DNA from: an uncultured bacterium
GTDB lineage: Bacteria > Patescibacteriota > Minisyncoccia > Moranbacterales > GWC2-37-73
Assembly: GCA_903861715.1 (NCBI GenBank)
Contig: CAIOVI010000019.1
Coordinates: 5,936 to 69,935, forward strand
Reading direction: 5' to 3'
Length of the DNA: 64,000 nt
Part shown: positions 14,446 to 30,786 of the stretch, in pieces
Layout: every line of letters begins with the position of its first letter
Position numbering within the stretch: position 1 is the stretch's first letter
Notes under the pieces: model-generated
Database searches by the model: none
Told to the model about the DNA's origin: nothing
The model's input: the letters and a program-made list of their open reading frames with translations, nothing else
Made by a program: the position numbers and the translations under genes

Positions 14446-14518
14446 ATAAATTGTCACATGGTTATATTGCTATATTGTTAGATTATAAAAGTATTATTTT
14501 ATCGAAGTATTATTATCT

Positions 14519-14676
14519 GGTGAAGTGAACGTCTGGCTAGGGCGGACTGAACAGCCTGGCCGCCTTTGAAGGAAGCGACGATAACAAAAGGTTTTTTGCC
14601 TCACCGATTTTATCGGTGTGAGTCTGAAGGGCACAGGGCCTGCCTACCGGTAGGCAGGCTTGCTCTGGGGTATTAA
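14519..14676. repeat. structured repeat element A (copy 1), containing the 22-bp perfect palindrome gcctgcctaccggtaggcaggc
   Basis: About 105 nt are shared with the inverted copy at 30287-30400. Copy 1 carries an extra insert of about 45 nt at 14530-14575. Confidence 0.7.
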
Positions 14677-14710
14677 TATTCTTTTATTTTACAAAAAAAG
14701 CTAACGCAAA

Positions 14711-14757
14711 AACAAAAAAACCATAAATCATACGATCGTATGTTTTGTGGTTTTTTG
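14711..14757. terminator. bidirectional intrinsic terminator (A-run, long hairpin with catacgatcgtatg core, T-run)
   Basis: aaaaaaccataaatcatacgatcgtatgttttgtggtttttt. Confidence 0.6.
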
Positions 14758-14771
14758 TGAAAAATTTTTTT

Positions 14772-14798
14772 ACACCCATATATTAATTTATAGGTGTG
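14772..14798. repeat. CCATATAT hairpin element (variant)
   Basis: acacccatatattaatttataggtgtg. Confidence 0.5.
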
Positions 14799-14840
14799 AA
14801 GGGAAATTAAAATTGCGAGAAAATTTTTGCAAAATATTTT

Positions 14841-14867
14841 TACTTCCATATATCCATTTATGGAAGT
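14841..14867. repeat. CCATATAT hairpin element (identical to 2350-2376)
   Basis: tacttccatatatccatttatggaagt. Confidence 0.6.
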
Positions 14868-14924
14868 AGTGAAAAAAACGGAAAATGTTATTTTGTTTTT
14901 TGAAATTTTTGCTATAATAAACTC

Positions 14925-16388
14925 ATGACCAAGTCAAAAATACTTTTGTTTTTGCTTTTGAGTTTCATTGGGGCGGTTTTTGTCAGGTCATTTTTTGAAA
15001 TTTCTCAAATTGAAATTTTTCTGCTGCTAATGTTGGCCTTGATAACACTATTCACATTTTACAAAAACAAAATGGCGACACTGGTCGCTTTTTTGTTGCT
15101 CTCTTTCGTATTTGGGTTGTGGAAAACTGACAGCAAAATATCACAGGCCAGCAATTTAACATTTTTGGGAAAAAATTTTCAAGAGCAAGCTGTTGTGCAA
15201 AAAGTGAGCCCTTCGACTTTCGGGCAGAATATTATTGTTGATTTTCAAAACGAGAAAATTTCGGTCCTGCTGCAAGTTCCGCAATATCCGGAATATAAAT
15301 ATGGAGATTTGTTGGAAATAACTTGCACTGTCAAGGCGATTGAAAATTTATCTGCCGGAGAGGCAGGCAAAGATGATAGTTTTGACTATCACATGTATAT
15401 GGCCAAAGAAGGCGTGCTGTATCAATGTGAAAAAAGTAAAATTAAAAAAGTTGGAGAAAACGGTGGCAGTTTTCTTTTGGGAAAAATAATTGCCATGCGC
15501 AGGATTTTTGAAAACAAAATCAATCAGGTGCTGCCTCAGCCAGAAGGCGCTTTGGCTATTGGACTTTTGCTGGGTGGCAGTGGTGGACTTTCCAAGGAAA
15601 TCCAAAGTGATTTTTCGCGCACTGGCATGACGCACATCGTGGCAGTTTCGGGATATAATGTGACGATCATTGCGGAATATCTAATTTTGCTTGGCATTGC
15701 CTTGGGGCTTTGGCGCAAGCAGGCAATTTGGTTTGCGATTGTGGGAATTGCTTTGTTTGTGATCATGAGCGGCTTGCCAGCTTCGGCAGTGCGAGCTGGG
15801 GTGATGAGCGGCATTTTGCTTTGGGCGATGAAAAATGGAAGGCTTTCTTCTTGTGAAAATGCCATCATTTTTGCAGGGGCGATAATGCTATTTCTCAATC
15901 CTTTGCTGCTCCGATGGGATGTGGGATTTCAACTTTCTTTTTTGGCGACTTTGGGCATTGTGCTGACTTCGGATTTTTGGGAAAAGAGTTTTGTGAAGCA
16001 GCACAAAGCCCTGGGAATTTCAGAAGCAATCACTTTGTCGCTGAGCGCTCAAATTTTTGTGTTGCCAATCATTGCCTACAACTTTCATTTGACTTCACTC
16101 ATTTCACTTCTGGCTAACGTTTTTATTTTGCCAGTGATTCCACTCTCAATGCTCTTGGTTTTTTTGGTGATGGTTTTTGGTTTGCTTTGGACGCCGCTTT
16201 CCTTGGTTTTCGCTTGGCTGGCTTTCGTGCTGCTGGCCTATGAAATAAAACTGATTCATCTTTTAGCCGAGTTTCCCTGGGCCAGTGTCGGTGTTGAAAA
16301 AGTCAACGTGTGGTGGATTGCGATTTACTATATAATATTAATAAGAATAATTTTTTGGATAAAAAGTCGAGAAAATTTAGAAGTATGA
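14925..16388 (+). CDS. comEC: ComEC/Rec2 competence protein (DUF4131 plus competence domain; no fused MBL domain)
   Basis: Polytopic membrane protein with the competence-domain block LAIGLLLGGSGGLSKEIQSDFSRTGMTHIVAVSGYNVTII. Confidence 0.8.
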   Translation: MTKSKILLFLLLSFIGAVFVRSFFEISQIEIFLLLMLALITLFTFYKNKMATLVAFLLLSFVFGLWKTDSKISQASNLTFLGKNFQEQAVVQKVSPSTFGQNIIVDFQNEKISVLLQVPQYPEYKYGDLLEITCTVKAIENLSAGEAGKDDSFDYHMYMAKEGVLYQCEKSKIKKVGENGGSFLLGKIIAMRRIFENKINQVLPQPEGALAIGLLLGGSGGLSKEIQSDFSRTGMTHIVAVSGYNVTIIAEYLILLGIALGLWRKQAIWFAIVGIALFVIMSGLPASAVRAGVMSGILLWAMKNGRLSSCENAIIFAGAIMLFLNPLLLRWDVGFQLSFLATLGIVLTSDFWEKSFVKQHKALGISEAITLSLSAQIFVLPIIAYNFHLTSLISLLANVFILPVIPLSMLLVFLVMVFGLLWTPLSLVFAWLAFVLLAYEIKLIHLLAEFPWASVGVEKVNVWWIAIYYIILIRIIFWIKSRENLEV

Positions 16389-16614
16389 TTTTTGAAATAG
16401 TATTTTGTATTTTGCATTTTCCTCTCCGCACATTGCGCAGTGCGTAGGTAAAAGACGAGTGATGAGCGTTAAGAAATTTTGAAACGCAGTGAGGTCAGTA
16501 GGCCGAACGGAGTGTAAATTTTAGCGAAGAGTGAAGTCTTTGCCCCAGCAACAAGCACGTGTCGGGATTTCTTTTGTAACTTTTCTATTAAAAGAAAAGT
16601 TAACCTCTGTAATG

Positions 16615-16650
16615 CTGGATTGCTTCGGATGATTACATCCTCGCAAAGAC
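16615..16650. repeat. family-2 palindromic element, right-arm half copy
   Basis: ctggattgcttcggatgattacatcctcgcaaagac matches the right arms of the full copies at 17627-17718 and 18444-18537. Confidence 0.55.
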
Positions 16651-16687
16651 AAAGCAAGGCTTAATTATTAGTTATCATACATCCCTT

Positions 16688-17566
16688 ATGCTTCATCGCA
16701 AAATATTTTTTCCCATCCTGGGTGGTCTGATTGCGCTCATTGTCATCTTGAGCGTTATCGTTTTTCATGGTCAAAATAACGCTCTGAGCGTGGTGTTTTT
16801 GGATGTTGGCCAAGGCGATGCGATTTTGATTTCGCAAGGCAGTCAACAAGTGTTGATTGATGGTGGCAAGGATGGAAAATTGTTGTTGGAAAAACTGGGA
16901 AAATATATTCCCTTTTGGGATCGTAAATTGGAAACCATAATTGAAACGCATCCCGATCAAGATCACATCGGAGGCTTGGTTGACGTTTTGAGAACTTATG
17001 AGGTTGGTAGTGTGCTGGAAACCAAAATGCAAAACAATTCGCAGACTTTCAAAAAATTGGAAGAAACTGTCGATCAATTGGCAAGTCAGCACAAACTTGA
17101 AAAAATTGAAGCCAAAAAAAACGTGGTCATCAAGTTTTCCAACGGCGCAATTTTGCAAATTTTATATCCTTTGGAATCTGTGACAGACACTAACTCCAAT
17201 GACACTAATCTGGCCAGCGTGGTGGCAAAATTGACAGTTGGGGACAGCCGCTTTCTTTTTACGGGTGATTTTCCAACTTTGCAAGATAGTTCATTGCTCG
17301 GCAGCGGCGAAGATGTGAGTGCGAACTTTTTGAAAGTTGCGCATCACGGTTCCAAATATGCCACCAGCAATGAGTTTCTTGAAAAAGTAAAACCAACCGA
17401 AGCGATTATTTCAGTCGGAAAAAACAATTCTTATGGTCATCCAAGTCCAGAAGTTTTGCAAAGACTTTTGCAACATAAAGTGAAAATTTTGCGCACCGAT
17501 GAAAGCGGGGATGTTGAATATGAATGTCAGAATTTAAATAGTAAATGTTTTTTGAAATCATTTTAA
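16688..17566 (+). CDS. ComEC-type metallo-beta-lactamase fold hydrolase (stand-alone, with N-terminal TM anchor)
   Basis: VVFLDVGQGDAILI and HPDQDHIGG motifs typical of the ComEC C-terminal MBL domain. Confidence 0.75.
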   Translation: MLHRKIFFPILGGLIALIVILSVIVFHGQNNALSVVFLDVGQGDAILISQGSQQVLIDGGKDGKLLLEKLGKYIPFWDRKLETIIETHPDQDHIGGLVDVLRTYEVGSVLETKMQNNSQTFKKLEETVDQLASQHKLEKIEAKKNVVIKFSNGAILQILYPLESVTDTNSNDTNLASVVAKLTVGDSRFLFTGDFPTLQDSSLLGSGEDVSANFLKVAHHGSKYATSNEFLEKVKPTEAIISVGKNNSYGHPSPEVLQRLLQHKVKILRTDESGDVEYECQNLNSKCFLKSF

Positions 17567-17626
17567 GGTTGCAATTTTTCGTATTTTTGCATTTTTGAGT
17601 CCACTTCGCAGTGTATTCTAATTTTT

Positions 17627-17718
17627 GTCATCGCGAGGATTTTGTAATCAAAATCCGTGGCGATCCAGAGCCTTGCAACGCCCTGGATTGCTTCGGAGGA
17701 TTACCTCCTCGCAAAGAC
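17627..17718. repeat. family-2 palindromic element of about 92 nt (full copy)
   Basis: gtcatcgcgaggattttgtaatcaaaatccgtggcgatccag, then a loop, then ctggattgcttcggaggattacctcctcgcaaagac. The arms are reverse complements and contain nested hairpins. Confidence 0.6.
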
Positions 17719-17835
17719 GGATGAGGATTGATTGTCTTTTTGCAAACGAAACTTGCTTTATCTCAAACTTTTGCTAGACTATAAATATCTAGCAAGCTTA
17801 TCGCTTTTTAATTTAATTATAAATAACCAAAAATT

Positions 17836-18438
17836 ATGGCGCACCCAAGCAAAGAAAGAACGTTTGTCATCCTCAAGCCGGATGCAATTCAACGAAATTT
17901 TATTGGTGAAATCATTTCTCGTTTTGAAAAAACCGGGCTCAAAATCACCGCGATGCGATTGCTGGTGCCAAAGGCCGAGCAATGCTGGACACACTATAAT
18001 AAGGACGAGGCTTGGTTTCTGAAAAAAGGTGAAGGAATTGTGAAAGCTCGTCAGGAAAATAATATGCCAGTGGAAAAAGAGGCGATTGAATATGGTCGCG
18101 ATATTATTGGCCAATTGGTGACTTTTATGACCTCCGGTCCAGTTTTGGCCATGGTGATTGAAGGCAATCAAGCGGTTGGCATTGTGACTAAATTGGTTGG
18201 GGGAACTGAACCGCTGACTTCTGACATCGGCACCATTCGCGGAGATTTGACTTTGGATTCCTATGACCTGGCTGGCATTGATGGTCGCGCCGTGCGAAAT
18301 TTGATTCACTGCTCTGACAAGCCCGAAGAGGCTGAACGCGAAATCAAAATTTGGTTTACTGAAGAAGAAATCATCAGCTATCGTTCCATTTCAGAGCAAA
18401 TGCTTTATGATGTGAACCTGGATGGAATTTTAGAATAA
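17836..18438 (+). CDS. ndk: nucleoside diphosphate kinase (long form with insertion)
   Basis: ERTFVILKPDAIQR and the NLIHCSD active-site His motif. Confidence 0.85.
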   Translation: MAHPSKERTFVILKPDAIQRNFIGEIISRFEKTGLKITAMRLLVPKAEQCWTHYNKDEAWFLKKGEGIVKARQENNMPVEKEAIEYGRDIIGQLVTFMTSGPVLAMVIEGNQAVGIVTKLVGGTEPLTSDIGTIRGDLTLDSYDLAGIDGRAVRNLIHCSDKPEEAEREIKIWFTEEEIISYRSISEQMLYDVNLDGILE

Positions 18439-18443
18439 ATAAA

Positions 18444-18537
18444 GTCATTGCGAGGATGTAATCATCCGTGGCAATCCAGAATGTTGCCAGGCCCTGGATC
18501 GCCACGTATTTCCGAGTACAGAAATACTCGCGAAGAC
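18444..18537. repeat. family-2 palindromic element of about 94 nt (full copy)
   Basis: gtcattgcgaggatgtaatcatccgtggcaatccag ... ctggatcgccacg ... ctcgcgaagac. It begins 6 nt after the ndk stop. Confidence 0.6.
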
Positions 18538-18624
18538 GCGTAGCTATCTAGAATACACAAAAATCGACCATCGTGGTCGGTTTTTTGTTTTGCTTTTTTT
18601 CCTCAAGCTTGATATTCTGGAGAT

Positions 18625-19812
18625 ATGAAAAACTTTCTGAAAAAAATATTCATTGTCATTCTGGAACTGGCTTTCATCGCGGGCGTGCTTTGGTATATTG
18701 CGGAAAAAAGAGGCATTCACAGTTTGCAACAAGTTGCGCCGACCTTGGGAAGTCGATTTGAAAAAATGGTGCAAGCGCCTTTTCCTGCCTTGGAACAACC
18801 AGTTACAAAAACTTTTCAGTGGAAATACAAAAATGTCCAATATGAATTGCCGTTGACGCTTTATCAATCGGTCTATGTCTATTATCAAAAGCAACCCAAA
18901 ATTTTTTCCTACACCGGTGACTTGCCGGCCAACTGGGAAGAAAGCTATTATGGCATGTTTTTGAAAGCCAACGACAATGATTCGACCATTGCCAATCTTG
19001 CCAGTGGTTTGCAACAATTGGGCACCCAGCATCGCTTGAGCAGTGACCAAGTCGTGGAACTTGCCTTGGCTTTTGTGCAGTCCATCACCTATGATGACAC
19101 AAAAGCTAGCAACATTTTGGCCAAAGCTGACAATGAAACCATGCTCTATCCATACGAAACACTTTTTGAACAAAAGGGTGTTTGCAGTGACAAGAGTTTG
19201 TTGGCAGTTTCAATTTTGAGAAAGCTGGGCTATGGTGTGGCAATTTTTGCTTATGAGCAAGACAACCATATGGCCATCGGGGTGCAATGTCCTCAAAATT
19301 ATTCGACCTACAATAGCGGTTATTGCTTTGGCGAAACCACTAGCGTCGGCAACAAAATTGGCCTTATTCCGCAATTTAACACTCAAAGTCAGAAAACTGC
19401 CGATCTTGCCGAACTTCCAACTTTTGATCAGGCGCAGCAACAAATCAAAAATTTGCAAGACCTTGGGCAAATGACAATTTATCAAATTACTCCTGGCAAA
19501 GAATATACGGGCATCATTGAAACGAAAAGAATTGAAACTGAGTTAACCAAGCTGAAAACCGATTTGAAAAATTTGATGGCGAAATTGGAAGCGCAGAAAA
19601 AAGTTGTTTCGGGAGAGGTTGCTGATTTGAAGAAGCAAAAAGACAACCTGGATAGTTGGAAAAATGAGCAAAACTTTGAAAAATATAACGCTGCGGTGGA
19701 GGATTATAACTCGCTGTTGGAAAAATACAAGCAAGACGTGAAAAGTTACAATAATTCGATCCCGCTTTACAATCAGACGGTGGCGAGGTATAACGAGTTA
19801 ATCAAGCAGTGA
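18625..19812 (+). CDS. membrane-anchored transglutaminase-like (Cys-His-Asp) protein with C-terminal coiled coil
   Basis: GVCSDKSLLAVSILRKLGY fits the transglutaminase-like catalytic Cys context, and NHMAIGV supplies the His. The C-terminal 100 aa are coiled-coil and Lys/Glu-rich. Confidence 0.45.
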   Translation: MKNFLKKIFIVILELAFIAGVLWYIAEKRGIHSLQQVAPTLGSRFEKMVQAPFPALEQPVTKTFQWKYKNVQYELPLTLYQSVYVYYQKQPKIFSYTGDLPANWEESYYGMFLKANDNDSTIANLASGLQQLGTQHRLSSDQVVELALAFVQSITYDDTKASNILAKADNETMLYPYETLFEQKGVCSDKSLLAVSILRKLGYGVAIFAYEQDNHMAIGVQCPQNYSTYNSGYCFGETTSVGNKIGLIPQFNTQSQKTADLAELPTFDQAQQQIKNLQDLGQMTIYQITPGKEYTGIIETKRIETELTKLKTDLKNLMAKLEAQKKVVSGEVADLKKQKDNLDSWKNEQNFEKYNAAVEDYNSLLEKYKQDVKSYNNSIPLYNQTVARYNELIKQ

Positions 19813-20405
19813 TGGAAATATTAAGCCATAAAATTGAAGAAATGGGTATAACCAAGAAGATAACGCTTAATAGTGAGAAAATTGAATATACCGTCCGCAA
19901 ACACCGAACCGCAAAAAGGCTTAAATTGGCCATTTATTGCGATGGAAATTGTGTGGTGACTTTGCCATGGCGAATGGGTTTTTGGAGTGCCGATGATTTC
20001 ATCAAGAAAAACGCCACTTGGGTTTTGGAAAAAATGAAGGCTATGAAGAAAATTGGCCGCAACAGTCTGTTTGCTCGCCATGACCATGTGGAATATCTCA
20101 AGCTCAAGGAGCATGCCCGCGAAATGGTGGCCAAGCGACTGGAGAAATTCAATGAGGTGTATGGTTTCAAATACAAAGGAGTTGCCATTCGTAATCAAAA
20201 AACCCGCTGGGGCAGTTGCTCATCCAAAGGCAATCTTAATTTCAACTACAAAATCCTGCTCCTGCCGCAACGTCACGCTGACTATATCATCGTGCACGAA
20301 CTTTGCCATCTGAAGGAATTTAATCATTCCAAGCGCTTTTGGAACCTCGTGGCTCAAACAATTCCAGAATATGAGAAGATTGTGGAACAACTGAGAATTT
20401 TATAA
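19809..20405 (+). CDS. DUF45/YgjP-like (SprT/WLM-type) zinc metallohydrolase
   Basis: HELCHLKEFNHSKRFW contains an HExxH motif. The gene overlaps the upstream gene by 4 nt (ATGA). Confidence 0.65.
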   Translation: MMEILSHKIEEMGITKKITLNSEKIEYTVRKHRTAKRLKLAIYCDGNCVVTLPWRMGFWSADDFIKKNATWVLEKMKAMKKIGRNSLFARHDHVEYLKLKEHAREMVAKRLEKFNEVYGFKYKGVAIRNQKTRWGSCSSKGNLNFNYKILLLPQRHADYIIVHELCHLKEFNHSKRFWNLVAQTIPEYEKIVEQLRIL

Positions 20406-20599
20406 AAATGCCAAACATAGTGATGGCATTTTTTTGTGCTATAATATAAAAGTAAACACTAAAAAATAAACATTATGCCCAGTAGTGAGAATTCGAAAAT
20501 TATTCACTGTGGCTGAAAGAGTTTAAGGGTTAGAAAATAATAATCTAATTTAAAATAAAAATTGTTTGAGCATGGCTCATTCGAATTTCTACTACTGGG

Positions 20600-21283
20600 A
20601 TGCGGAAAATATTTTTAGACATCGAAACTTTGCCGGCAGGCGAGGATAAGTTTGAAATTTTGCAAAAACTATATGACAAGAAAGTCGCCAAGCAAGGAAG
20701 CGAAAAAAGTGAAGGCGAAACTTTTGAAGATTTCGTCGGGGCGACCAATTTTGATGGCGCTTTCGGGCGCATTTTGTGCATCGGCTTTGCCATTGACGAT
20801 GGCGCGCCAGAAACGCTTTATCACGAAAACGATGAGCGCCAAACGCTGAAACGCTTTTGGGAAATTGTCGATTCCATCAGTTCGCCTTCACGGGGTGGCT
20901 ATGGCGGTCCAGATTATGGTGTGCAATTTGTTGGACACAACGTGATGGATTTTGATTTGCGTTTCATTTATCAACGCTCGATTGTGCTGGATGTTAAACC
21001 TGCCTACGAACTGAATTTTGCTCGCTATCGAAATTATCCAATCTTTGACACGATGCGGGAATGGTCCAAATGGAGCAGTGGGATGATTGGTTTGGAAAAG
21101 TTGGCGTTGGCCTTGGGCGTGCCTTCGCCAAAAGATGAAGGCATCGACGGCAGCCAAGTCGCTGAGTTTTTCGCCAACGGAAAGGTGAACGATATTTTAG
21201 AATATTGCAAACGCGACGTGCAGACGACCAGAGATGTCTATCGCAAAATGACTTTCGACAAACCCGCCAATAAACTTTTTTAA
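20600..21283 (+). CDS. RNase H-like DEDDy 3'-5' exonuclease (PolB-exonuclease-related family)
   Basis: Exo I FLDIET, Exo II FVGHNVMDFDLRF and Exo III YCKRDVQTT motifs. Confidence 0.6.
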   Translation: MRKIFLDIETLPAGEDKFEILQKLYDKKVAKQGSEKSEGETFEDFVGATNFDGAFGRILCIGFAIDDGAPETLYHENDERQTLKRFWEIVDSISSPSRGGYGGPDYGVQFVGHNVMDFDLRFIYQRSIVLDVKPAYELNFARYRNYPIFDTMREWSKWSSGMIGLEKLALALGVPSPKDEGIDGSQVAEFFANGKVNDILEYCKRDVQTTRDVYRKMTFDKPANKLF

Positions 21284-21296
21284 GCGTTAATTTTTT

Positions 21297-21335
21297 ATGG
21301 AGGCTCAACCTCCATAATGGAGGTTGAGCCTCCAT
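21297..21335. repeat. GGAGG-hairpin palindromic repeat (copy 1): atggaggctcaacctccat a atggaggttgagcctccat
   Basis: Perfect 19-bp inverted arms. Each arm is itself a ggagg/cctcc mini-hairpin. The element is flanked by a T-run and an A-run. Confidence 0.7.
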
Positions 21336-21344
21336 AAAAACACT

Positions 21345-21668
21345 ATGCAACAAATCAAAGAAAAAATTGTGACCCTCAAAGATAAAGGTGCGGAACTTGA
21401 AAGGGAAATTCGTGAAAAAACCTTGGGCTATATTCTCACCAGTTTTGGACTCGTCGCTGGCCTGGCTTGGAACGAAGCCATTAAAGCTTTCATTGAAAGA
21501 TTTTTCTCTGATTCAAGCGGCGGTCTGCTGGCTAAATTTCTCTACGCAATTGTTGTGACCATCGTGGTGGTGCTGATTTCACTTTATTTGACCAGACTTT
21601 TCAAGGTCGACAAAAAAGCCAAAGGCGTTGAAAAAGAGGAGGCAAAGACGGCGAAGAGAACGAAATAG
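21345..21668 (+). CDS. small membrane protein (coiled-coil N-terminus, one or two TM helices, Lys-rich tail)
   Basis: ORF with an ATG start, followed by a clean terminator. Confidence 0.4.
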   Translation: MQQIKEKIVTLKDKGAELEREIREKTLGYILTSFGLVAGLAWNEAIKAFIERFFSDSSGGLLAKFLYAIVVTIVVVLISLYLTRLFKVDKKAKGVEKEEAKTAKRTK

Positions 21669-21678
21669 TTTTTTACTG

Positions 21679-21709
21679 CCACACTACTTCATATGGTAGT
21701 GTTTTTTTG
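21679..21709 (+). terminator. rho-independent terminator
   Basis: acactac / gtagtgt stem followed by T7. Confidence 0.65.
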
Positions 21710-21896
21710 GGTTAAAAAAGTTTAATTTTTGAGAATAACTTGCGTATGGTGGATTGCTTGCATTTTGGGAAAAATTGGGCGATACTGAGCTATGAAATAT
21801 TGACTAGTTTTAGGAAGTTAATTTAATAGGTGGAAATAAGGCAAAGACTAAACTTTCAGAGCACTGAAGGTTCAGTTTTTTTGAAAAAAATTTTCC

Positions 21897-24800: not shown

Positions 24801-25511
24801 GTTTCGCATTGCCAACTTGGAAGCGAACAAAATATTTTGTATCAAGAAATTTTGAAGAATGTGAAAAATGATTTAGCCGAGGTGGTGGCGGAAAAAGGTT
24901 TTGCCAAATCGCAGATTCACATTTTGGCAGGGCTGACCAAGTTGCGTCAAGTTTGCAATCATCCAGTCTTGCTCCTGAAAGACAAAAATCACAAAAAATA
25001 TGCTTCCGCTAAATTGGAATTATTCTTGGAATTGGTTGGCGAAATTGTTTCGGCCGGCAGAAAAGTTTTGGTCTTCAGTCAATTCACGCAGATGCTGGAT
25101 ATTTTGGCCAAAGAATTAGAAGAGCAGGAAATTGGCTATCATTATCTGTCTGGCAAAACCAATAACCGCAAAGAATTGGTGCAAGATTTCAACAGCAATG
25201 AAAAAATCCCGGTCTTTTTAATAAGCTTAAAGGCTGGTGGCACGGGGCTTAATCTGACTTCGGCTGACAATGTGATCATCTTTGATCCTTGGTGGAATCC
25301 TAGCGTCGAAAATCAAGCCATTGATCGGGCTCATCGTATTGGTCAGAAAAATTCTGTCAATGTCTATCGCCTGATTGTCAAAGGCACGATTGAGGAAAAA
25401 ATCGTGGCCTTGCAAAACAAGAAAAAATCACTTTTCGACAATATGATCGGCGAAAGCAATGACCTTTTCAGGAAACTCACCTGGTCAGACGTGAAAGAAC
25501 TGTTCCAATAG
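21897..25511 (+). CDS. SNF2-family helicase with N-terminal SWIM zinc finger
   Basis: SWIM CxC...CxH motif (CSCPYDWGDCKHAVA). SNF2 ATPase motifs (LADDMGLGKT, DEAQYIKN, TGTPLEN) and helicase C motifs (QAIDRAHRIGQ). Confidence 0.85.
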   Translation: MEQGIFSKQQLKDELRRMVGATVYSRGVSYYRDDLVGQITSQLLQGGKIKLSAFVMGSDEYKTTAVFDFSKNSFQKFICSCPYDWGDCKHAVALALKFLDFYAQFLEEENIVENEGEDFGGSLVLWLKKIAQNKTQSWEDAEYYADEDEEIAEEYAPRSKSKIKIKDAEIVTSKKQENNEIADLKARLKSIGIDAENIPDFVLKELEKKVSVGSLQLGVQAESLEKPRVVENLGERFLQKYCLVLKTDYQFKIELHEKNKPNDSYWMVNAGELLGREKNQLTGKQKELLSALSDVSAWYNDDESSDYGKILSLAKEIGVSIFANSKAASSRVTFRDDGSKFKAKLFFKKEYDWQGTERVEQEKLLFGLAGEFFLTKQNRMYLRGQYLIVLDNFQLAIISLPEILAGAVGKIMKSISYYQNYYYQPNDNELLNRAETILEDTEIIRLNEFIEKVRELFELETDLSAKFEIKEFKKLGPAIMVDYDNANHFLQLRATMDYGFAKFDVAQIVYKSMRGGKPSFQKRYFSGREKYHLEIVGDKINYAKMASKAEIALFRKFSQEEQLGFSKTVHCVKKSVKQIEKFQSENWTNVKALGYPLEYIHDNFDFVEENFKVDYDVSFDKSNDWFEFDVACYCGENNITLEDLQKYIKDKQQFLKLADGRILKITNRAELEKFVRMLESFYQREGQKFEGKLFHAPELEDVLTSSPYYSGKIAKSFKNFMAEAQSGKPVEKVAIPAKIKKPLRDYQKDGINWFYFLRKYRFGGILADDMGLGKTLQALSLIEMNKIKKKPSIVICPKTLLFNWEDEAIKFFPAMKVLVISGAPTERQAQLKTLKKVDLVITSYPSVKKDQLEYDKLKFNYCFLDEAQYIKNHKTQNAKAVRKINADYRLALTGTPLENSVSEIWSLFEFLMPGFLGTQHAFAEKFERPIMKEADSTALEALRKKTACFVLRRTKEKVLKELPAKIQQVSHCQLGSEQNILYQEILKNVKNDLAEVVAEKGFAKSQIHILAGLTKLRQVCNHPVLLLKDKNHKKYASAKLELFLELVGEIVSAGRKVLVFSQFTQMLDILAKELEEQEIGYHYLSGKTNNRKELVQDFNSNEKIPVFLISLKAGGTGLNLTSADNVIIFDPWWNPSVENQAIDRAHRIGQKNSVNVYRLIVKGTIEEKIVALQNKKKSLFDNMIGESNDLFRKLTWSDVKELFQ

Positions 25512-25702
25512 TAAAATTGATATAGGAAAATTATTCTTTTCAAGCAGCAAAAATGGGAGCAGAGTGGGGATGCGGGTTAATTATGGTTGCTGCGTAGCAG
25601 GCTACGTAACAAACGTAGCAAAATTAAAATAACCCTTATTAGGTAACAGCGTGGTGTGATAAATTACCACATTATCAAAAGTAAAGCGCATTTTTCAAAT
25701 CT

Positions 25703-25742
25703 GACATTTACTTTGATACTCGAAAGTATCAAAGTAAATGTC
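25703..25742. promoter_or_regulatory. perfect 40-bp palindrome (18-bp arms around cgaa) 30 nt upstream of the SEC-C gene start
   Basis: gacatttactttgatact cgaa agtatcaaagtaaatgtc. A second, imperfect copy lies at 26373-26411. Confidence 0.6.
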
Positions 25743-25771
25743 ACCAAATTTAAATTCATAAAAGGAGCACC

Positions 25772-26314
25772 ATGAGCAACAAATTTAACAATCTGAAAGA
25801 AGAAGATTTGATCAAATTTTTGGATGAGGGAAGTTTAAAAGAGGATGAAATTGCTGATTTTATGCAGGCCATGCAGAACAGGGGGCTGGCAGGTTCGATT
25901 ATGCAGTTGGATGACCCAAATTCCAGAGAGGGAAAATCAACTATTGAATATGTGAGCTATCATGAGAAAATTCCGCGGGAATATTTTTTGGAAATGCCAG
26001 AAGGTGAAATCATCAAAGCGCAGAAAACTTTGCTTTCGCAGGATTCCCTGATTGAAGATAAGAAAGTGGCATTGCTGGTTCTGGCTCATGCGAAAAAAGA
26101 GGTGGCACGTGAAGCCTTGCAAAAATATTCTGAAAATCCAAATGAAAGTCTGCGAACTTGGGCAACTTTGGCCTTGCAAGAATGTGAAAGTTTTTTGGAG
26201 AAAAATGAAAATGAAAAACCAAAAATTCTTTTTCAAAAAATCAAAAGCACCAAGCGAAATGACCCTTGCCCATGTGGGTCTGGCAAGAAATTTAAAAAAT
26301 GTTGCTTGGAATAG
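25772..26314 (+). CDS. SEC-C motif protein (helical N-domain, C-terminal CPCGSGKKFKKCC metal-binding tail)
   Basis: Canonical SEC-C motif at the C-terminus. It shares an ALxECExFL helical block with the protein at 40777-41418. Confidence 0.6.
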   Translation: MSNKFNNLKEEDLIKFLDEGSLKEDEIADFMQAMQNRGLAGSIMQLDDPNSREGKSTIEYVSYHEKIPREYFLEMPEGEIIKAQKTLLSQDSLIEDKKVALLVLAHAKKEVAREALQKYSENPNESLRTWATLALQECESFLEKNENEKPKILFQKIKSTKRNDPCPCGSGKKFKKCCLE

Positions 26315-26372
26315 CCTTCAATTTTAATTATTCAGGTTAACAGCTGATCTAGCTTTTCTTTTTTCAAAAGTG

Positions 26373-26411
26373 GCAAACACTTTGATACTCGAAAGTATCA
26401 AAGCAAATGTC
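26373..26411. repeat. second copy of the tttgatactcgaaagtatcaaa palindrome (imperfect outer arms)
   Basis: Core of 24 bp identical to the copy at 25703-25742, followed by the same aaatgtcaccaaa. Confidence 0.6.
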
Positions 26412-26546
26412 ACCAAACTGAGGAAGCTTTTTGGAAAATTATTGTGTCTGAATTCACAGGTTAATATTTTTGGATTATTTTGAAATTGTGTGGTATAATA
26501 TCGATATCAGTTTTTCAACTTTTAAAGGGCTTGGCTTAAAACAAAA

Positions 26547-26969
26547 ATGAAAATTCTTGGCATTATTTTGGCCTCTCTTGCGTTTGCCGGCGTGATCATC
26601 TCACCGTTTTTTTGGTTGGGTTTTTTGCGGGCGAAAAGCGTGGGGCGATATTTGGTTGTGAGTTCAATTTTAACCTTACTATTTTTCTGGTTTTCTTTGA
26701 CATGGCTGTATGATTTTTTATTAAAGCCTGTAAATAGTTATGACGTCCTTTATTATTTTGATAACATATCTTTAGGATATTCATTTATGGTATTTTTTTT
26801 CATAATTATTTCTCCTTTGATTTTCATTAAAATTGTCCAACAAAAATTCACGCTGAAAAGTTTTGCGGGCGGGCTGCTTCTTTCTTTGGTCCTTTTCATT
26901 TCGATTTTCTTGTTTTGGGCGCTGGTGCTGTTGCCACAGGCTTTCAATCAATTGCACAATTATTTTTAG
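26547..26969 (+). CDS. small polytopic membrane protein
   Basis: 140 aa with four hydrophobic helices. Confidence 0.4.
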   Translation: MKILGIILASLAFAGVIISPFFWLGFLRAKSVGRYLVVSSILTLLFFWFSLTWLYDFLLKPVNSYDVLYYFDNISLGYSFMVFFFIIISPLIFIKIVQQKFTLKSFAGGLLLSLVLFISIFLFWALVLLPQAFNQLHNYF

Positions 26970-27060
26970 TTTCTGATCTTAAGCTAACTGCACCTAAAGA
27001 GGCTAAGCCTCTGAGTAATAATTATTTTTTGTTTTCAAAAAGAGGGGGAGCGCATTAGAT

Positions 27061-30000
27061 ATGCGAAAGAAAATTTTTCCAGGACTTCACTTGGGAATTG
27101 CAATGCTCGTTTGGATTTTTTGGGGCGTCAAAGTGGCGCAGGCTTTGGTTTTGGTGACCAATGATGTCATTGTGCCAACAACTTGGACAAAGGCCAATAG
27201 CCCTTATGTCATTCAAAATTTCATTGAAATCAAAGCACCGCTGGTCATTGAAGCTGGCACCGTGATCAAATTTCAAAATTTTGAAAGTGATGGCGGACCG
27301 ACAGTGCCCGGCCTGGGCATTCAAAGTGCTTTCACGGCTGTGGGCAGTCCTTTGGAAAAGATTGTGTTCACAAGTGCCTGTGACTCTAATTATGGTGGGG
27401 ACACGCAGCAAGATTGTTCCTCCAAAATGCCTAGTCGCAGCGGAAGTTGGGATAGCCTCAGGGTTTGGGTCGGATTTGGTCAGCCAGTTTTGATTGAATA
27501 TGTCAAAATTTTGAATGCTAGCAATGGCGTAACTTATGTAAATTCTCAGTGCAATTTTTCCTATCGGGATTTGACGGTCAGAAACACCGAAATCAGTTTT
27601 GCTTCTTCTGCTGGAATAGCGCTTCAATGCGTTCAGCCAATTTTGGACAGCTTGAAGCTAACGTTTAATTACGACGGGATTTATGTTAGTAACTCGGTTT
27701 ATAATTACACGCCGAAAATTAGAAATAGCATCCTTAGCGACAACCGGAATGCTGGCGTAGAGGCATATCGGTACACTTACTTTGATGCCAGATATAATTA
27801 TTGGGGAGATGCTAGTGGGCCATATTATGGTTATGATAATCAAGGCAACACAGAGGGCCCCAATAAAAGCGGTTCGGGCAATCGTATTGTTGGAACCAGT
27901 GTGCTGTTTCGACCTTGGGACAAAAGCGATCCAACCATTCCGAAAAAACCAGTGATTTTCATTCCCGGCATTGGCGCTTCCATCAACCCAGATTTGATGA
28001 TTGGTGGAGTTTTCGCTGACAATTGGACGATGTTTGATCACACCTATGACGGCATCCTCAAAGCTTTCAAGGTCATGGGTTATCAAGAAGGCAAGAATTT
28101 TTTCATTGCCTATTATGACTGGCGTCAAGGCAACGGCGAGTCAGCGGAAAAATATCTCAAGCCCCTCATCAAAAAAGCGCTGACACTGAATGATGTGACG
28201 CAGGTGAACCTCGTGACTCATTCCATGGGATCGTTGGTGGCGCGCAGCTATGTGCAAAGTTCCAGCTATGCCAACAACGTGGACAATTTGATTATGATTG
28301 CGCCACCCAATCGAGGTTCTTCAGATGTTTATACTTTGTGGGAAGGCGGTTATATTCCAAAAAATTGGAGTAGTAGAACAGCCATGGTTTATTATCTTGC
28401 ATATTTGCAGTTAATAAATTTAGAAACTAGTAGATATAATATTATTCATAAATATATTCCTTCCCTCAAAGATTTGCTGCCAGTTTATGATTTTCTTTTT
28501 CCAACTGGCAAGGCAGACGAACTCAAAAATTTTTTTGACATGCAAGAGCGGAATGATTTTTTGCTGGATTTGAATAAGTCGGTTGCTGGCTTGAAAACCA
28601 AAACTGATTTGAGCATCATTTTGGGCGACAAACAGCCGACTGTGAGCAAAATTCCATTTGTTGATTCTGATCAAGCGGGGCTTTGGTTGGATGGCAAGCC
28701 GAGTCCGCTCGATCCAGTGCGAGATGATGCCAGCGGTGATGGCGAAGTGCTGAGATTATCTGGTGACATTCCCAGCAATTTTTGGGCAGTGCTGAACTAT
28801 GACCACAGTGCAATTGTCAGCAAATCGGAGAAAATTGTGGCTGATCTGCTGGGCGAAACTTTGACTGACACTTTCGATTCACCAGAAATTAAAGATGAAA
28901 TTATTTTTTGGACCGATGCACCAGGAGATTTGAAAGTATCTGACCCAGATGGAGCCTCGGCGCCCAAGGATAACAATGAAGACACTGATGTCCGCTATGC
29001 GCAGGAGGAAGGCAAGGATGGTTTCAAAATCGTGTCAGTGCCGAATGTGAAAAATGGGCAATATCACGTTGAGCTTCAAGGTCATGAAAATGGGAACTAT
29101 CATTTAGCAACTGAATATGTCGATCACAAAAACGAAAATCAGCAAGAGGCAGTTCAAGTCGTTCAGACTCAGAAAGATCAAACGCAAAATTTTGTGGTGA
29201 CAGTTGATCCGAAAAATCCAGTCACGCCAATTCAAGATGTTCAATTGCAAGATGAAATTGCGCCAACCATCACATTGCAAGCTCCCGAGGATGGCAAGGC
29301 ATATGCCAATGATCAAATTTTGCCAATTGTTTTTTCAGTTTCGGATAATGTTTCCAAAGAAGAAGATCTTGTGGTTGAAAAATATCTGGATGATGACAGT
29401 CAGCTGTTTGAGGCGGACTCGATTGATTTTGCAAAGCTTGCGCTGGGCCAGCATGTTTTTTGGATCAATGTTTATGATGAGGCAGGGAACTACAACTCCG
29501 TCGGAGTGTCGTTTGAAGTCAAGCAAGCTGAAACTCCAAGCAATCCGCCGGCAGACAATGGCAGTGGCAATCAAGACCAGACTGGTGGAAGTGGCGGCGC
29601 TGGCGGCGGAAATCAAAACAATGGAAATACTGATCCAGATTCAGGTTCTAATTCAAATGGTGGCTCTAATTCTAATTCTAATTCTAATTCTAATTCAGGC
29701 AGCCAGCCAGTGACGGAAGCTGTAGTTGCGCCAACCCAGTCAGCGGCGGCTCAGGAAAATTCTGGTTCAAATCGAAAAAAAACAGCCAGCCACAAAAAGA
29801 AAAAACAAATCAAAACAATTTCAACAACAACGAAATTTATTGAAGGTGGTGGCGTGACAAAATCCAGTGAGCCAATAAAAGTGCTTTTCAGTTCAAATTT
29901 TAATTTGTCGAAAAATTCTGAAGAGCAGCAGAATTTGTTTTATCAAGTCCTGGAAGAAAATCTCAAAGGGCAGTTGCTAGCTATGGAGGAAAATCCAATT

Positions 30001-30282
30001 CAAGATGAAGAAACTTTCGTTACTTTTCAAGCAATGCGACAAAGAAATTCTTTTTTCGCCATACTGGCTAGGGCTGACAAAAATTTGTTTAAATTTCTTG
30101 GCGGGCCAATCGTGTTGGGCGCAGAGCGCAATAGCAAACAAGCGGATGCAAATTTTGAGCAGTTGCGTGCTGCTCAAAAAAAGGCTGAAAAAAGCAGGCT
30201 AGCTTTATTGCTCGAATTTGCATTTGCCTTGGCCGCCACAATTTTCTTTGCCCTTAGTTTTTTCAGGGCTCGTTTCAAATAA
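27061..30282 (+). CDS. large secreted / surface-anchored protein with parallel beta-helix N-region, lipase-like alpha/beta-hydrolase domain (GHSMGS), Ser/Asn low-complexity linker and C-terminal TM anchor
   Basis: Signal peptide. Beta-helix-like repeats (NASNG..., SDNRNAG...). VIFIPGIGAS ... VTHSMGSLVAR lipase/PGAP1-like motif. (SN)n tract. Hydrophobic C-terminus. Confidence 0.65.
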   Translation: MRKKIFPGLHLGIAMLVWIFWGVKVAQALVLVTNDVIVPTTWTKANSPYVIQNFIEIKAPLVIEAGTVIKFQNFESDGGPTVPGLGIQSAFTAVGSPLEKIVFTSACDSNYGGDTQQDCSSKMPSRSGSWDSLRVWVGFGQPVLIEYVKILNASNGVTYVNSQCNFSYRDLTVRNTEISFASSAGIALQCVQPILDSLKLTFNYDGIYVSNSVYNYTPKIRNSILSDNRNAGVEAYRYTYFDARYNYWGDASGPYYGYDNQGNTEGPNKSGSGNRIVGTSVLFRPWDKSDPTIPKKPVIFIPGIGASINPDLMIGGVFADNWTMFDHTYDGILKAFKVMGYQEGKNFFIAYYDWRQGNGESAEKYLKPLIKKALTLNDVTQVNLVTHSMGSLVARSYVQSSSYANNVDNLIMIAPPNRGSSDVYTLWEGGYIPKNWSSRTAMVYYLAYLQLINLETSRYNIIHKYIPSLKDLLPVYDFLFPTGKADELKNFFDMQERNDFLLDLNKSVAGLKTKTDLSIILGDKQPTVSKIPFVDSDQAGLWLDGKPSPLDPVRDDASGDGEVLRLSGDIPSNFWAVLNYDHSAIVSKSEKIVADLLGETLTDTFDSPEIKDEIIFWTDAPGDLKVSDPDGASAPKDNNEDTDVRYAQEEGKDGFKIVSVPNVKNGQYHVELQGHENGNYHLATEYVDHKNENQQEAVQVVQTQKDQTQNFVVTVDPKNPVTPIQDVQLQDEIAPTITLQAPEDGKAYANDQILPIVFSVSDNVSKEEDLVVEKYLDDDSQLFEADSIDFAKLALGQHVFWINVYDEAGNYNSVGVSFEVKQAETPSNPPADNGSGNQDQTGGSGGAGGGNQNNGNTDPDSGSNSNGGSNSNSNSNSNSGSQPVTEAVVAPTQSAAAQENSGSNRKKTASHKKKKQIKTISTTTKFIEGGGVTKSSEPIKVLFSSNFNLSKNSEEQQNLFYQVLEENLKGQLLAMEENPIQDEETFVTFQAMRQRNSFFAILARADKNLFKFLGGPIVLGAERNSKQADANFEQLRAAQKKAEKSRLALLLEFAFALAATIFFALSFFRARFK
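29671..29700 (+). repeat. hexanucleotide microsatellite (aattct)x5, in frame, encoding SNSNSN
   Basis: Read directly from the sequence. Confidence 0.8.
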
Positions 30283-30286
30283 AAGT

Positions 30287-30400
30287 GTATTAATACCCCA
30301 GGGCAAGCCTGCCTACCGGTAGGCAGGCCCTGGACCCTTCGGGCTCACATCGATAAAATTGGTGAGGTATCAATCTTTTGTTATCGTCGCTCACTTCGCT
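30287..30400. repeat. structured repeat element A (copy 2, inverted relative to copy 1)
   Basis: Its reverse complement matches 14572-14676, including the 22-bp palindrome. It starts 5 nt after the stop of the upstream gene. Confidence 0.7.
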
Positions 30401-30547
30401 AGATAATAAACATCCAGCCAATGAGCTTAATTATTTTCTGTTACAATATTTCAGTATATTGTAATATCCCACAATTGAAATTTTTAGCTATCGCCCGCCT
30501 GTCACGATATGACATTTCGGGCAGGCAATTATTTTCAACTCTAAAAG

Positions 30548-30619
30548 CTTTTGACTTTGTTACCATACAACTACATATGGTAACGAAGTCAAAAAGTCCA
30601 TTCAACCACATAAGGACAT
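30548..30619. repeat. long hairpin (19-bp arms) plus GTCCAT...CCACATA...GGACAT hairpin, inside a 225-bp segment bounded by 21-bp direct repeats (30474-30494 and 30699-30719)
   Basis: cttttgactttgttaccat ... atggtaacgaagtcaaaaag, then gtccattcaaccacataaggacat. Confidence 0.5.
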
Positions 30620-30754
30620 CTCGAAAAGCTAGTGGTATTTAATGGTAAATTGGTTTAGTTTGTTTTAATTTTTTTAGTTTTTTATTTCGGGGTGCATAAT
30701 TGAAATTTTTAGCTATCGCAATTTTTTTCAACTCTTTTAAAAATCAAAACCAAA

Positions 30755-30786
30755 AATCCCCAGCCTTTCGGCAGGGGATTTTTTGA
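30755..30786. terminator. bidirectional terminator (tccccagcc tttc ggcagggga flanked by A- and T-runs), probably serving rpmB
   Basis: aaaaatccccagcctttcggcaggggatttttt. Confidence 0.6.

Follow-up and report, generated by a model that had tools for sequence, protein, structure and literature searches.

The ERIC/IRU elements of enterobacteria are imperfect palindromes of ~127 bp that lie in transcribed intergenic regions, in either orientation, and affect mRNA stability. Their shorter and longer variants result from sequence lost or gained at set positions inside the element. An element of the same size class occurs in the 64,000-nt stretch of DNA analysed here (the window), and sequence comparison points to its two full copies being members of a real, small and previously undescribed family in Candidatus Moranbacteria (Patescibacteria/CPR). 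Like ERIC/IRU, the Moranbacteria element is non-coding, intergenic beside gene ends, found in either orientation and patchy among relatives, and it combines a stable multi-helix fold with block insertion or deletion variants at fixed internal positions. However, it has no sequence similarity to them, it comes from a CPR bacterium, and instead of a single long imperfect palindrome it consists of two domains, its 5′ end being distinct from its 3′ end. A count of no more than three copies, of which two are full and one is partial, in ~84 kb of this genome speaks against a high-copy dispersed repeat.

Sibling sRNA families that end in intrinsic terminators, for example Qrr and the csRNAs, are also comparable in that they comprise several paralogous copies of ~100–200 nt, with a conserved single-stranded 5′ segment and conservation that ends at a U-tract. 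The Moranbacteria element differs from them in having no recognisable promoter and no known regulator or target, in being non-syntenic between relatives and in showing fragments and module swaps. The MITEs (Correia/NEMIS, RUP) are similarly small, non-coding, dispersed, structured and often co-transcribed with their neighbours, but no related IS was found for the Moranbacteria element, and the initial annotation's suggestion of a MITE-like repeat was rejected in the strict sense because the family copies have neither terminal inverted repeats (TIR) nor a target-site duplication (TSD). REP, BIME and REPIN elements, which are mobilised by RAYT (TnpA-REP), are closer in this respect, as they likewise lack TIR and TSD, are mosaics of GC-rich palindromic hairpins and conserved linkers, lie nested in or beside other elements, and occupy gene 3′ ends where roles in termination or mRNA protection have been proposed (PMC3116915, PMC8266576). 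In contrast to these, the Moranbacteria unit is no inverted-REP doublet, its consensus is far longer than the 20–40 nt of a REP and its known copies are few; the window yielded no RAYT or IS200-like gene, no transposase or recombinase and no other gene for mobilisation. The most likely reading, undemonstrated and with a little under an even chance of being right, is of an ERIC/BIME-like dispersed structured repeat family that acts as a terminator or 3′-end structure.

Modular anatomy and structural conservation

The basal unit, exemplified by the copy on contig L146, is ~145 nt long and is predicted to fold into two domains. Domain 1, the 5′ stem-loop module, would be closed by UUAUC/GAUAA and bears a variable hairpin, P0, while domain 2 (3′) would be a three-way junction closed by helix P1 (AAAAGG-UUAAUACC / GGUAUUAA-UA-CCCUUUU), which joins an A-tract with a U-tract. 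P2 and P3 are short hairpins, capped in the basal form by G(CUUG)C tetraloops that exist on one strand only. The edges are sharp: all eight copies, whether full or partial, open with TTATTATC and continue with nGAAGyGAG, and the full copies end in CTTTTATT(T). The features of the window are as follows.

14510–14692, + strand: copy 1, full element, running from TTATTATC to CTTTTATTT by alignment; covariance model 139.7 bits at 14567–14694
14510–14529, + strand: module A of copy 1, TTATTATC-tgg-tGAAGTGAa, the conserved family 5′ end present in all eight copies
14530–14575, + strand: GC-rich 46-nt hairpin segment of copy 1 at the P0 position, unrelated in sequence to the P0 of other copies
14573–14585, + strand: module B, (A/G)AGCGACGATAAC, a conserved linker whose GAUAA is able to pair with the UUAUC of module A
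14586–14600, + strand: P1 5′ strand of copy 1, AAAAGGTTTTTTGCC, with two U.U mismatches and one G.U pair
14601–14621, + strand: P2 hairpin of copy 1, TCACCGATTTTATCGGTGTGA
14622–14633, + strand: junction J23 of copy 1, GTCTGAAGGGCA; family consensus GCCCRAAGGGTC
14634–14667, + strand: P3 of copy 1, base helix CAGGG/CTCTG plus inserted palindrome; empty form in L146
14638–14659, no strand: 22-bp palindrome GCCTGCCTACCGGTAGGCAGGC in the P3 loop of copy 1, exact match
14668–14692, + strand: P1 3′ strand and U-rich tail of copy 1, GGGTATTAATATTCTTTTATTTTAC
14715–14757, no strand: bidirectional terminator hairpin of canonical type, 23 nt beyond the end of copy 1 and outside the repeat
30272–30409, − strand: copy 2, full element without the P0 hairpin, starting at 30409; covariance model 136.1 bits
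30307–30328, no strand: 22-bp palindrome in P3 of copy 2, exact match
30810–30872, + strand: partial copy 3, comprising module A, P0 hairpin GAAACGAAAGTAATCTTTCATTTC and module B (GAGCGACGATAGC), without the three-way junction
30873–30898, + strand: simple hairpin and U-rich tract, AAGGCGTAATCGCCTT ATTTGCTTTC, replacing the three-way junction after partial copy 3
60334–60374, + strand: nested GC-rich hairpin 3′ of ruvX, a non-member by fold and pattern (covariance model E=1.2)

Copies 1 and 2 are 87% identical over 119 nt (104 of 119–120 positions in a global alignment), and a repeat search of the window recovers them as 103-nt inverted arms, 14587–14689 and 30277–30379, that are 86% complementary. 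The initial annotation had described this inverted pair, with a shared tail (AGCGACGATAACAAAAG, found in both) and a ctcacc..ggtgag hairpin (P2), and was right on each count. The limits of ~115 nt that it gave were too narrow, as both copies start earlier, at TTATTATC (14510, and 30409 on the minus strand). It had also reported substitutions concentrated in loops, which the alignment does not support, the 15 differences falling mainly in the P1 5′ strand, the P2 stem and junction J23. The insert that it noted in copy 1 is present, at 46 nt, but is no extra of that copy: a hairpin occupies the P0 position in five of the six full copies, copy 2 being the one without, which implies that copy 2 lost the module between GAGCGA direct repeats and not that copy 1 gained an oddity.

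The junctions are kept across the copies, whereas the hairpins at the periphery vary by exchange, insertion or deletion, and extra GC-rich hairpins are gained or lost at fixed points, namely at P0 and in the loops of P2 and P3. The L043 copy has one additional hairpin, and both it and L104 carry ~29 extra nt in the P2 loop. Pairing is nevertheless retained in each of the three sequence forms of P2 and the four of P0, and at the P1 pair of columns 33/134 A-U, G.U and G-C all occur. Standard pairs fill 96.4% of 220 pair cells, against 37–55% when the partners are slid; five pairs are changed on both sides, and the covariation score of 0.184, compared with 0.110 in shuffles, was reached by none of 500 shuffles. 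The uneven conservation, coupled with tetraloops on one strand, suggests selection on a specific RNA, which would fit an sRNA gene too.

Distribution and gene context

Six independent full copies are known, in unrelated gene contexts, which bears out the earlier proposal of a repeat family: the two in the window and four further ones in other metagenome contigs (L104, L043, L144 and L146–149), plus two partial copies. The four are all non-syntenic, with unalignable flanks, and family members other than those of the window are single in their contigs. Between genomes the 3′ domain is 92–97% identical and the 5′ domain down to ~75%. Strains that are ~99% identical have the element unchanged, copy 1 being identical in contigs L132, L133 and L005 and copy 2 also being carried by L145, and relatives with a PBP2 of 84–86% identity (L126–131, L134–136) lack it downstream of that gene.

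Each of the six loci has a gene that reads into the element from 0–220 nt away, on the 5′ side for copy 1, L043 and L144 and on the 3′ side for copy 2, L146 and L104. The initial annotation's placement at gene 3′ ends is true throughout, but its statement that both window copies directly follow stop codons needs amending, since copy 1 starts 65 nt beyond the stop codon of PBP2, on the same strand, and copy 2 lies on the strand opposite to the convergent lipase gene (27061–30282, +), with its 3′ end overlapping the TAA stop. In both copy 2 and L146 the TAA of the convergent gene falls inside the terminal AAATAAAAG.

Function and rival explanations

For a dispersed structured repeat, we infer both mobility and a terminator or 3′-protection role. 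Copies would reach new intergenic sites without TIR or TSD and settle at gene 3′ ends in either orientation, where the element would become part of the neighbouring gene's transcript. On either strand this transcript would then carry a compact fold followed by a U-rich tract, and the two together may form an intrinsic-terminator-like, 3′-end-protecting structure; GC-rich hairpins would come and go at fixed points, the 22-bp palindrome being one such insertion. A U-rich tract indeed lies 3′ of the fold on both strands, and the 3′ end of L146 is flagged as terminator-like. Against this, a simple scan made no terminator-like call for the window copies, and the separate canonical terminator after copy 1 means that copy 1 is not needed there as a terminator.

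The main rival, which we regard as rather unlikely, is that the copies are independent genes of a sibling sRNA family, transcribed from a −10-only promoter (TATTAT within TTATTATC) and ending at the U-tract after the three-way junction, with the conserved unpaired GAGCGACGAUAAC and GUGAGCCCRAAGGGU available to bind protein or target RNAs. In all copies conservation starts exactly at the TATTAT box and stops at the U-tract, and in partial copy 3 the retained 5′ module is followed by a different hairpin and U-tract that are terminator-like on its own strand only. The conserved junctions beside variable helices, the three kinds of pair at one position of P1, the one-strand tetraloops on P2 and P3, and the near identity of 3′ domains between genomes with unalignable flanks are all as expected of an RNA gene. 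Moreover, no gene lies upstream in the same orientation at copy 2, L104 or L146, and L146 is directly preceded by a terminator, so that expression there would need its own promoter. However, promoter prediction gives no sigma-70-type call for any copy, and none of the eight has a −35 or an extended −10; the same lineage has a canonical TTGACT-17-TAAGAT upstream of tRNA-Pro. Pairing is predicted between the UUAUC of this putative −10 and the GAUAA of the element, in which case the UUAUC would belong to the folded unit. The copies are also non-syntenic and missing from relatives with 84–86% PBP2 identity, single-sided stem changes fit the forward strand in four cases and the reverse in three (our own count) and thus give no strand signal, a search of 57 translation-start regions in the window yielded no target complementarity above shuffled controls, and the Rfam search that the initial annotation had suggested returned no match.

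A riboswitch-like attenuator in the leader of a co-oriented downstream gene is very improbable. It would account for the conserved nucleotides of the three-way junction and for the U-tract behind it, and such a gene does lie 70–230 nt downstream of copy 1 (comEC), L043 (a 118-aa membrane protein) and L144 (dnaJ). These genes are functionally unrelated, however, and copy 2, L104 and L146 each point at the end of a convergent gene, with nothing downstream for them to control, so that orientation and context largely refute a cis-regulatory leader. In addition, there is no Rfam riboswitch match, and the sole double-sided change here backs P1 rather than the alternative terminator hairpin (GGGGCAUUAAUACCC in L144). 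Even less credible is the earlier idea of an inversion of the 15.6-kb segment between the inverted copies, through homologous or site-specific recombination acting on them. The copies are inverted, 15,587 nt apart, and have 30 bp of perfect identity in common, but this is their longest such run at 87% identity overall, no recombinase is nearby, other family members are single in their contigs, and the + strand carries nearly all of the genes, whether inside the segment or beyond it. Public assemblies reach across a junction in five independent cases, L005, L132 and L133 at copy 1 and L145 and a 16-kb contig at copy 2, and every one of them is collinear with the window.

The 22-bp palindrome and nearby hairpins

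The perfect palindrome GCCTGCCTACCGGTAGGCAGGC had been correctly recognised in both window copies, where no match would be expected by chance. It had been taken for the core of the element, which it is not, as the L146 copy lacks it and there has an empty site, P3 being merely CCAGGG-CUUG-CCCUGG. Because the exact 22-mer recurs with sharp edges in 109 unrelated metagenome contexts, it is, to judge by this distribution, a separate mini-palindrome and a secondary insertion into the P3 loop. In this it alone resembles the small dispersed repeats (SDR) of heterocystous cyanobacteria, reportedly described by Elhai et al. in 2008 (Genome Res 18:1484; ref. 43 of PMC3116915), with which it shares a unit of 20–27 nt, sharp edges, insertion at many unrelated sites, including other repeats and hairpin loops, and the existence of filled and empty sites. 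The sequences differ, and the contigs bearing the palindrome span 34–65% G+C rather than one clade.

Partial copy 3, a genuine copy that the initial annotation overlooked, consists of just the 5′ module, which matches that of L144 at 88% identity over 67 nt. The different terminator hairpin that follows it adjoins the rpmB stop codon (30887–31054, −) and is terminator-like on the + strand only. The diverged partial copy that had instead been proposed at 60334–60374 was rejected, with 14.7 bits (E=1.2) under the covariance model; it has in common with the family the generic CCTGCC..GGCAGG hairpin type alone, here as a hairpin within a hairpin. Other repeat families in the same window are similarly modular, as for example one in which a 32-nt GC hairpin is present in one of two repeat copies.

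Copies of the element and their gene contexts

The initial annotation had described two inverted copies of one element, and reading both sites bears this out. A repeat search of the window recovers arms of 103 nt (14587-14689 and 30277-30379) that are 86% complementary and lie 15,587 nt apart, and a global alignment of the two cores gives identity at 104 of 119-120 positions, with a longest perfect run of 30 bp. The homology is real, but its extent had been drawn too short at the 5' end; since both copies begin with TTATTATC, copy 1 is placed at 14510-14692 (+) and copy 2 at 30272-30409 (-). In copy 1 the near-repeats GAAGTGAACG and GAAGGAAGCG are separated by an extra 46 nt (14530-14575). The window also holds a partial copy 3, absent from the initial annotation, in which TTATTATCTAGAGAAGCGAG is followed by the hairpin GAAACGAAAGTAATCTTTCATTTC and then CGAGCGAGCGACGATAGC. 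With the covariance model, the stretch after ruvX that had been taken for a diverged partial copy (60334-60374) reaches only 14.7 bits (E=1.2); it is a generic hairpin-in-hairpin of the CCTGCC..GGCAGG type. The inversion that the two copies had been thought able to mediate is seen in none of the assemblies.

Features of the window at and around the copies
12565-14445, + strand: PBP2 gene, stop codon 65 nt before the start of copy 1
14510-14692, + strand: copy 1
14715-14757, no strand assigned: canonical bidirectional terminator, 3' of copy 1 and followed by comEC
27061-30282, + strand: lipase-like gene, convergent to copy 2, its TAA overlapped by the last bases of copy 2
30272-30409, - strand: copy 2
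30810-30872, + strand: partial copy 3, 5' module only
30873-30898, + strand: simple hairpin and U-tract, replacing the three-way junction after partial copy 3
30887-31054, - strand: rpmB, nearest same-strand upstream gene of copy 2, ~480 nt away

The PBP2 homologues place the host in Candidatus Moranbacteria (Patescibacteria/CPR). In gene content the window represents a core region, with mreBCD-mrdA, the rpsL-fusA-tuf-S10-spc ribosomal cluster, secY and ruvX, and nearly all of its genes lie on the + strand. Other samples provided contigs of this species (L005, L132, L133 and L145) that are 99.3-100% identical to and collinear with the window and carry the same copies. Relatives with 84-86% identical PBP2 (L126-131, L134-136) differ in gene order and have no element downstream of PBP2, and no further copy lies in the 10 kb beyond the window on either side (L137-143). 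Between strains that are about 99% identical, a 480-nt length difference was observed (window 20387-20968, 582 nt, versus L132 8315-8414, 100 nt), which falls around the start of an exonuclease-like gene (20600-21283).

The search for further copies that the initial annotation had proposed was productive, yielding four full copies, on metagenome contigs L104, L043, L144 and L146, together with one fragment. A metagenome scan with the 22-bp palindrome that both window copies contain matched at least 120 contigs, and among the matches listed only L104 and L043 also share the flanks of the element (nhmmer E about 1e-18 and 1e-16, respectively). The L144 copy and that of L146-149 were traced through P0159 and P0160, spurious ORFs called across the element, so that two of the six full copies were found solely by this route. 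L043 bears an additional 5'-module fragment at 27-58. Conserved 3'-domain patterns had no match in two scans of viral contigs, and a search of genome contigs with the palindrome returned only four unrelated terminator hairpins.

The six full copies occupy six unrelated gene contexts whose surrounding DNA cannot be aligned. All six have a gene reading into them within 0-220 nt; it enters from the 5' side for copy 1, L043 and L144 and from the 3' side for copy 2, L146 and L104. Twice the stop codon of the convergent gene falls within the terminal AAATAAAAG of the element, namely for the lipase (window 30282) and for a TrmB-family regulator (L146 1449-1451); in a relative with a 71%-identical lipase, the protein stops after the same residue, a K. 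The 400-nt gene-free stretch from copy 2 to partial copy 3 includes a perfect bidirectional terminator at about 30752-30785.

Architecture and predicted fold

The basal unit of ~145 nt is modular, and its 3' domain is 92-97% identical between genomes.

Parts of the element, 5' to 3'
Module A: TTATTATC-nnG-nGAAGyGAG, at the start of all copies
P0: hairpin present in five of the six full copies, with four unrelated sequences; lacking in copy 2
Module B: GAGCGACGATA(A/T)C, after the P0 position
P1, 5' strand: AAAAGG-UUUAAUACC, start of the 3' domain, followed by the P2 hairpin
J23: GUGAGCCCRAAGGGU, junction between the P2 and P3 hairpins
P1, 3' strand: GGUAUUAAUACCCUUUU after P3, then AUUU

RNAalifold and the covariance model agree on a three-way junction closed by P1, which lies beside CUUUUAUUU on the forward strand and CUUUUGUUAUC on the reverse. 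Standard pairs fill 96.4% of 220 pair cells, compared with 37-55% when partners are slid, five pairs show double-sided changes, and the covariation score of 0.184 (0.110 in shuffles) is reached by none of 500 shuffles, figures that come from only six sequences of about three lineages in an alignment fitted to the model. Base pairs are kept through compensatory changes, as in a structured RNA. Most of the covariation lies in P2, which is exchanged as a block: the window copies have CACCGAU-UUU-AUCGGUG, L144 and L146 have CGAGG-CUUG-CCUCG, and L043 and L104 have this second form plus about 29 extra nt. At one P1 pair A-U, G.U and G-C are all seen, and the base of P3 can adopt two registers, AGGGU/GCCCU or CCAGGG/CCCUGG. 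Closure of domain 1 is predicted in most copies through pairing between UUAUC in module A and GAUAA in module B.

The two strands are about equally stable when folded. Of the single-sided stem changes, four are compatible with the forward strand only and three with the reverse only, so wobble pairs do not discriminate between the strands; the G(CUUG)C tetraloops of P2 and P3 form on the forward strand only.

The 22-bp palindrome

The palindrome GCCTGCCTACCGGTAGGCAGGC is exact in both window copies (14638-14659 and 30307-30328), where chance would be expected to place none, and it had been regarded as the core of the element. This view does not hold. In L146 the palindrome is missing and P3 is simply CCAGGG-CUUG-CCCUGG, an empty site at which, after CCAGGG, the other five full copies are longer by 20 nt (CCTGCCTACCGGTAGGCAGG). 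The 22-mer is flanked by GC at both sides and the empty site has a single GC (CCAGG-GC-TTG when empty, CCAGG-GC..18 nt..GC-TTG when filled), and on this comparison the filled site looks like the product of a 2-bp GC duplication. Moreover, the exact 22-mer recurs in at least 109 distinct contexts in metagenome contigs of 34-65% G+C. Among the matches listed, the stem is not extended beyond the 22-mer in 61% of contexts, and the bases at positions -8 to -1 occur at nearly even frequencies, the flanks being unconserved. The empty site and the recurrence in unrelated contexts together mark the palindrome as an independent recurrent unit rather than the core of the element, and judged from its sequence contexts it behaves like an ultra-small mobile palindrome. 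No mention of its sequence was found in the literature. With its documented empty site it is a more unusual point than the family that hosts it, and so ubiquitous a 22-mer can mislead repeat-based inference, as happened with the supposed third copy. The 22-mer also often lies close to the end of a contig, and it is often adjacent to similar GC-rich palindromes or nested within them.

Other small hairpins occur in the window. A direct repeat at 30462-30560 and 30687-30760 (+) has the form CA(C/T)AATTGAAATTTTTAGCTATCGC ... AATT(A/T)TTTTCAACTC; a 32-nt GC-rich hairpin, CCGCCTGTCACGATATGACATTTCGGGCAGGC, is inserted in its first copy and missing from the second. The stretch at 60334-60374, CCCTGCCTAC[CTGCCTATCGGCAGACAGGC]CGGCAGGCAGG (-24.6 kcal/mol, z=-4.5), appears to be a GCCTGCC-type palindrome nested in the loop of another. 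The 32-nt insert and this nested hairpin display the same insertion behaviour as the palindrome.

Dispersed repeat or RNA gene

The family was compared with a range of known element classes. The Rfam search that had been suggested gave no match at the gathering threshold over the whole window (Rfam 15), only chance-level miRNA and sRNA matches far below threshold at E<=10, and, in L043, L104, L144 and L146, only tRNAs elsewhere in the contigs; a tRNA/tmRNA search of the window found none. The suggestion of MITE-like repeats fails because the element has neither terminal inverted repeats (TIR), the 5' end TTATTATCTAGCGAAG being unlike the reverse complement of the 3' end AAATAAAAGGGTATTA, nor target-site duplications (TSD), no direct repeat flanking any of the six full copies. 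No transposase was found in the 64-kb window, an IS3-family gene on L141 lies 5 kb beyond it, and the available DNA revealed no mobilising enzyme. As regards REP/REPIN elements, GC-rich palindromes are abundant in the window, and neither a RAYT nor a Y1 transposase was found among the ORFs scanned. An IS200/IS605-derived PATE is contradicted by P0 (GAAAUG..CAUUUC) and the 3' hairpins, which are unrelated in sequence, by the lack of P0 in copy 2, and by the bases 5' of TTATTATC, which are merely T/A-rich with no conserved 4-5-nt target. The ends of the element, TTATTATC and CTTTTATTT, lack the GTTRRRY of integron attC sites. A DGR TR/VR pair is incompatible with copies that are non-coding, share no frame and differ by changes of all types, and no RT was found. 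A small peptide was rejected: although the ORFs across copies 1 and 2 have a C-terminal frame in common, upstream of it the conserved DNA is in different frames and L043 has a frameshift. The SRP RNA likeness of GAAGGAAGC in the copy 1 insert reflects a variant of the repeated GAAGYGAGCG word, with no Rfam SRP match. Hammerhead and group II domain V were ruled out on sequence grounds, TIGR-Tas arrays, considered from the literature on CPR non-coding RNAs and repeats, do not match, as neither a tandem array nor a Tas gene is present, and a leader for a common downstream gene is contradicted by the orientations and contexts of the copies.

The family is previously undescribed, with no match in Rfam or the literature, and belongs to a known kind, that of small dispersed structured repeats or, possibly, of sRNA paralogues. 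The ERIC/BIME kind of dispersed, structured intergenic repeat fits better than a conventional sRNA gene, and it is preferred tentatively, with a little less than even confidence. It is favoured by the sharp ends, the non-syntenic, patchy distribution and the existence of fragments, by block insertions and deletions at fixed points, by an orientation that is random while the position at gene 3' ends is constant, and by the absence of a promoter in a lineage that uses canonical sigma-70 promoters (for example TTGACT-17-TAAGAT before tRNA-Pro in L146). The compact fold, with a closing helix that joins an A-tract to a U-tract, would leave a U-rich tail on either strand, so that the element would act as a bidirectional terminator or 3'-end protector. 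A simple terminator scan flagged the L146 copy and left the window copies and L144 unflagged.

The main rival, that the copies are an independently transcribed family of sibling sRNAs, is somewhat less likely. It draws on a TATTAT box exactly at the 5' edge, on a partial copy with its own terminator, on three copies without a co-oriented upstream gene, on a 3' domain that is very highly conserved and on the CUUG loops. However, the TATTAT box is only -10-like, having in eight copies neither a -35 at 16-18 nt nor a TGn, and promoter prediction called none. A target search with RNAduplex, in which the 5' region and J23 were run against 57 start regions of the window, did no better than shuffled sequences. 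An outward promoter on the reverse strand (TTGTTA-18-GATAAT) was also considered and rejected, since L104 is the only contig in which it would point at a gene.

A bolder combination, somewhat less likely again, is that the palindrome may be an ultra-small mobile unit and the 145-nt element may be a new structured RNA of the CPR whose gene copies move. The palindrome would on this reading be smaller than any MITE and able to insert into the hairpin loops as well as the intergenic DNA of widely differing bacteria, and the RNA may be one defined by a three-way junction, two CUUG tetraloops and invariant junctions.

The genomes of CPR/Patescibacteria are small and gene-dense, and to our knowledge almost nothing is known of their non-coding elements. 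Dispersed modular structured repeats are present even in core regions, around mreBCD-mrdA and the ribosomal protein genes, and still smaller GC-rich palindromes invade them. If the dispersed repeats terminate transcription or protect 3' ends, they help to punctuate CPR transcription units, and if the element is an RNA gene it is among very few candidate sRNAs in the phylum. Such repeats also break metagenome assemblies and produce spurious ORF calls.

Clustering of such repeats is seen in these genomes. A third family, CTGGATTGC..CGGATGATTACATCCTCGCAA(A/T)GAC, occupies three intergenic spaces of the comEC-ndk region (window 16612-16650 (+), 17651-17718 (+) and 18444-18511 (-)), and its reverse complement, of the type 'gtcattgcgagg...gcaatcc', is also found in many of the CPR-like metagenome contigs retrieved. 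A 58-nt repeat (25691-25748 and 26360-26417) is 88% identical between its copies, each of which follows a gene end and forms a long near-perfect hairpin, TGACATTTACTTTGATACT-CGAA-AGTATCAAAGTAAATGTCA. Short intergenic stretches immediately upstream of rplR and rpsL (window 54608-54645 and 32746-32776) are 92-97% identical to intergenic stretches of the unrelated contig L043 (3135-3172 and 4582-4612) and may be conserved leader or ribosome-binding motifs. At L144 1640-1760, immediately 5' of the copy on that contig, there is a further compound hairpin element, gcgtcattctgatccgccttgggcggagaagaatccc ... gggattcctcg..ggaatgaca. In L146, several fragments resembling a tRNA 3' half (cagggattcgaa.., ggaatccctgcgccc) occur at 1000-1290, downstream of both tRNA-Pro (867-940) and the terminator of that gene; these are possible scars of integrative elements, and the L146 copy of the repeat follows directly after them.
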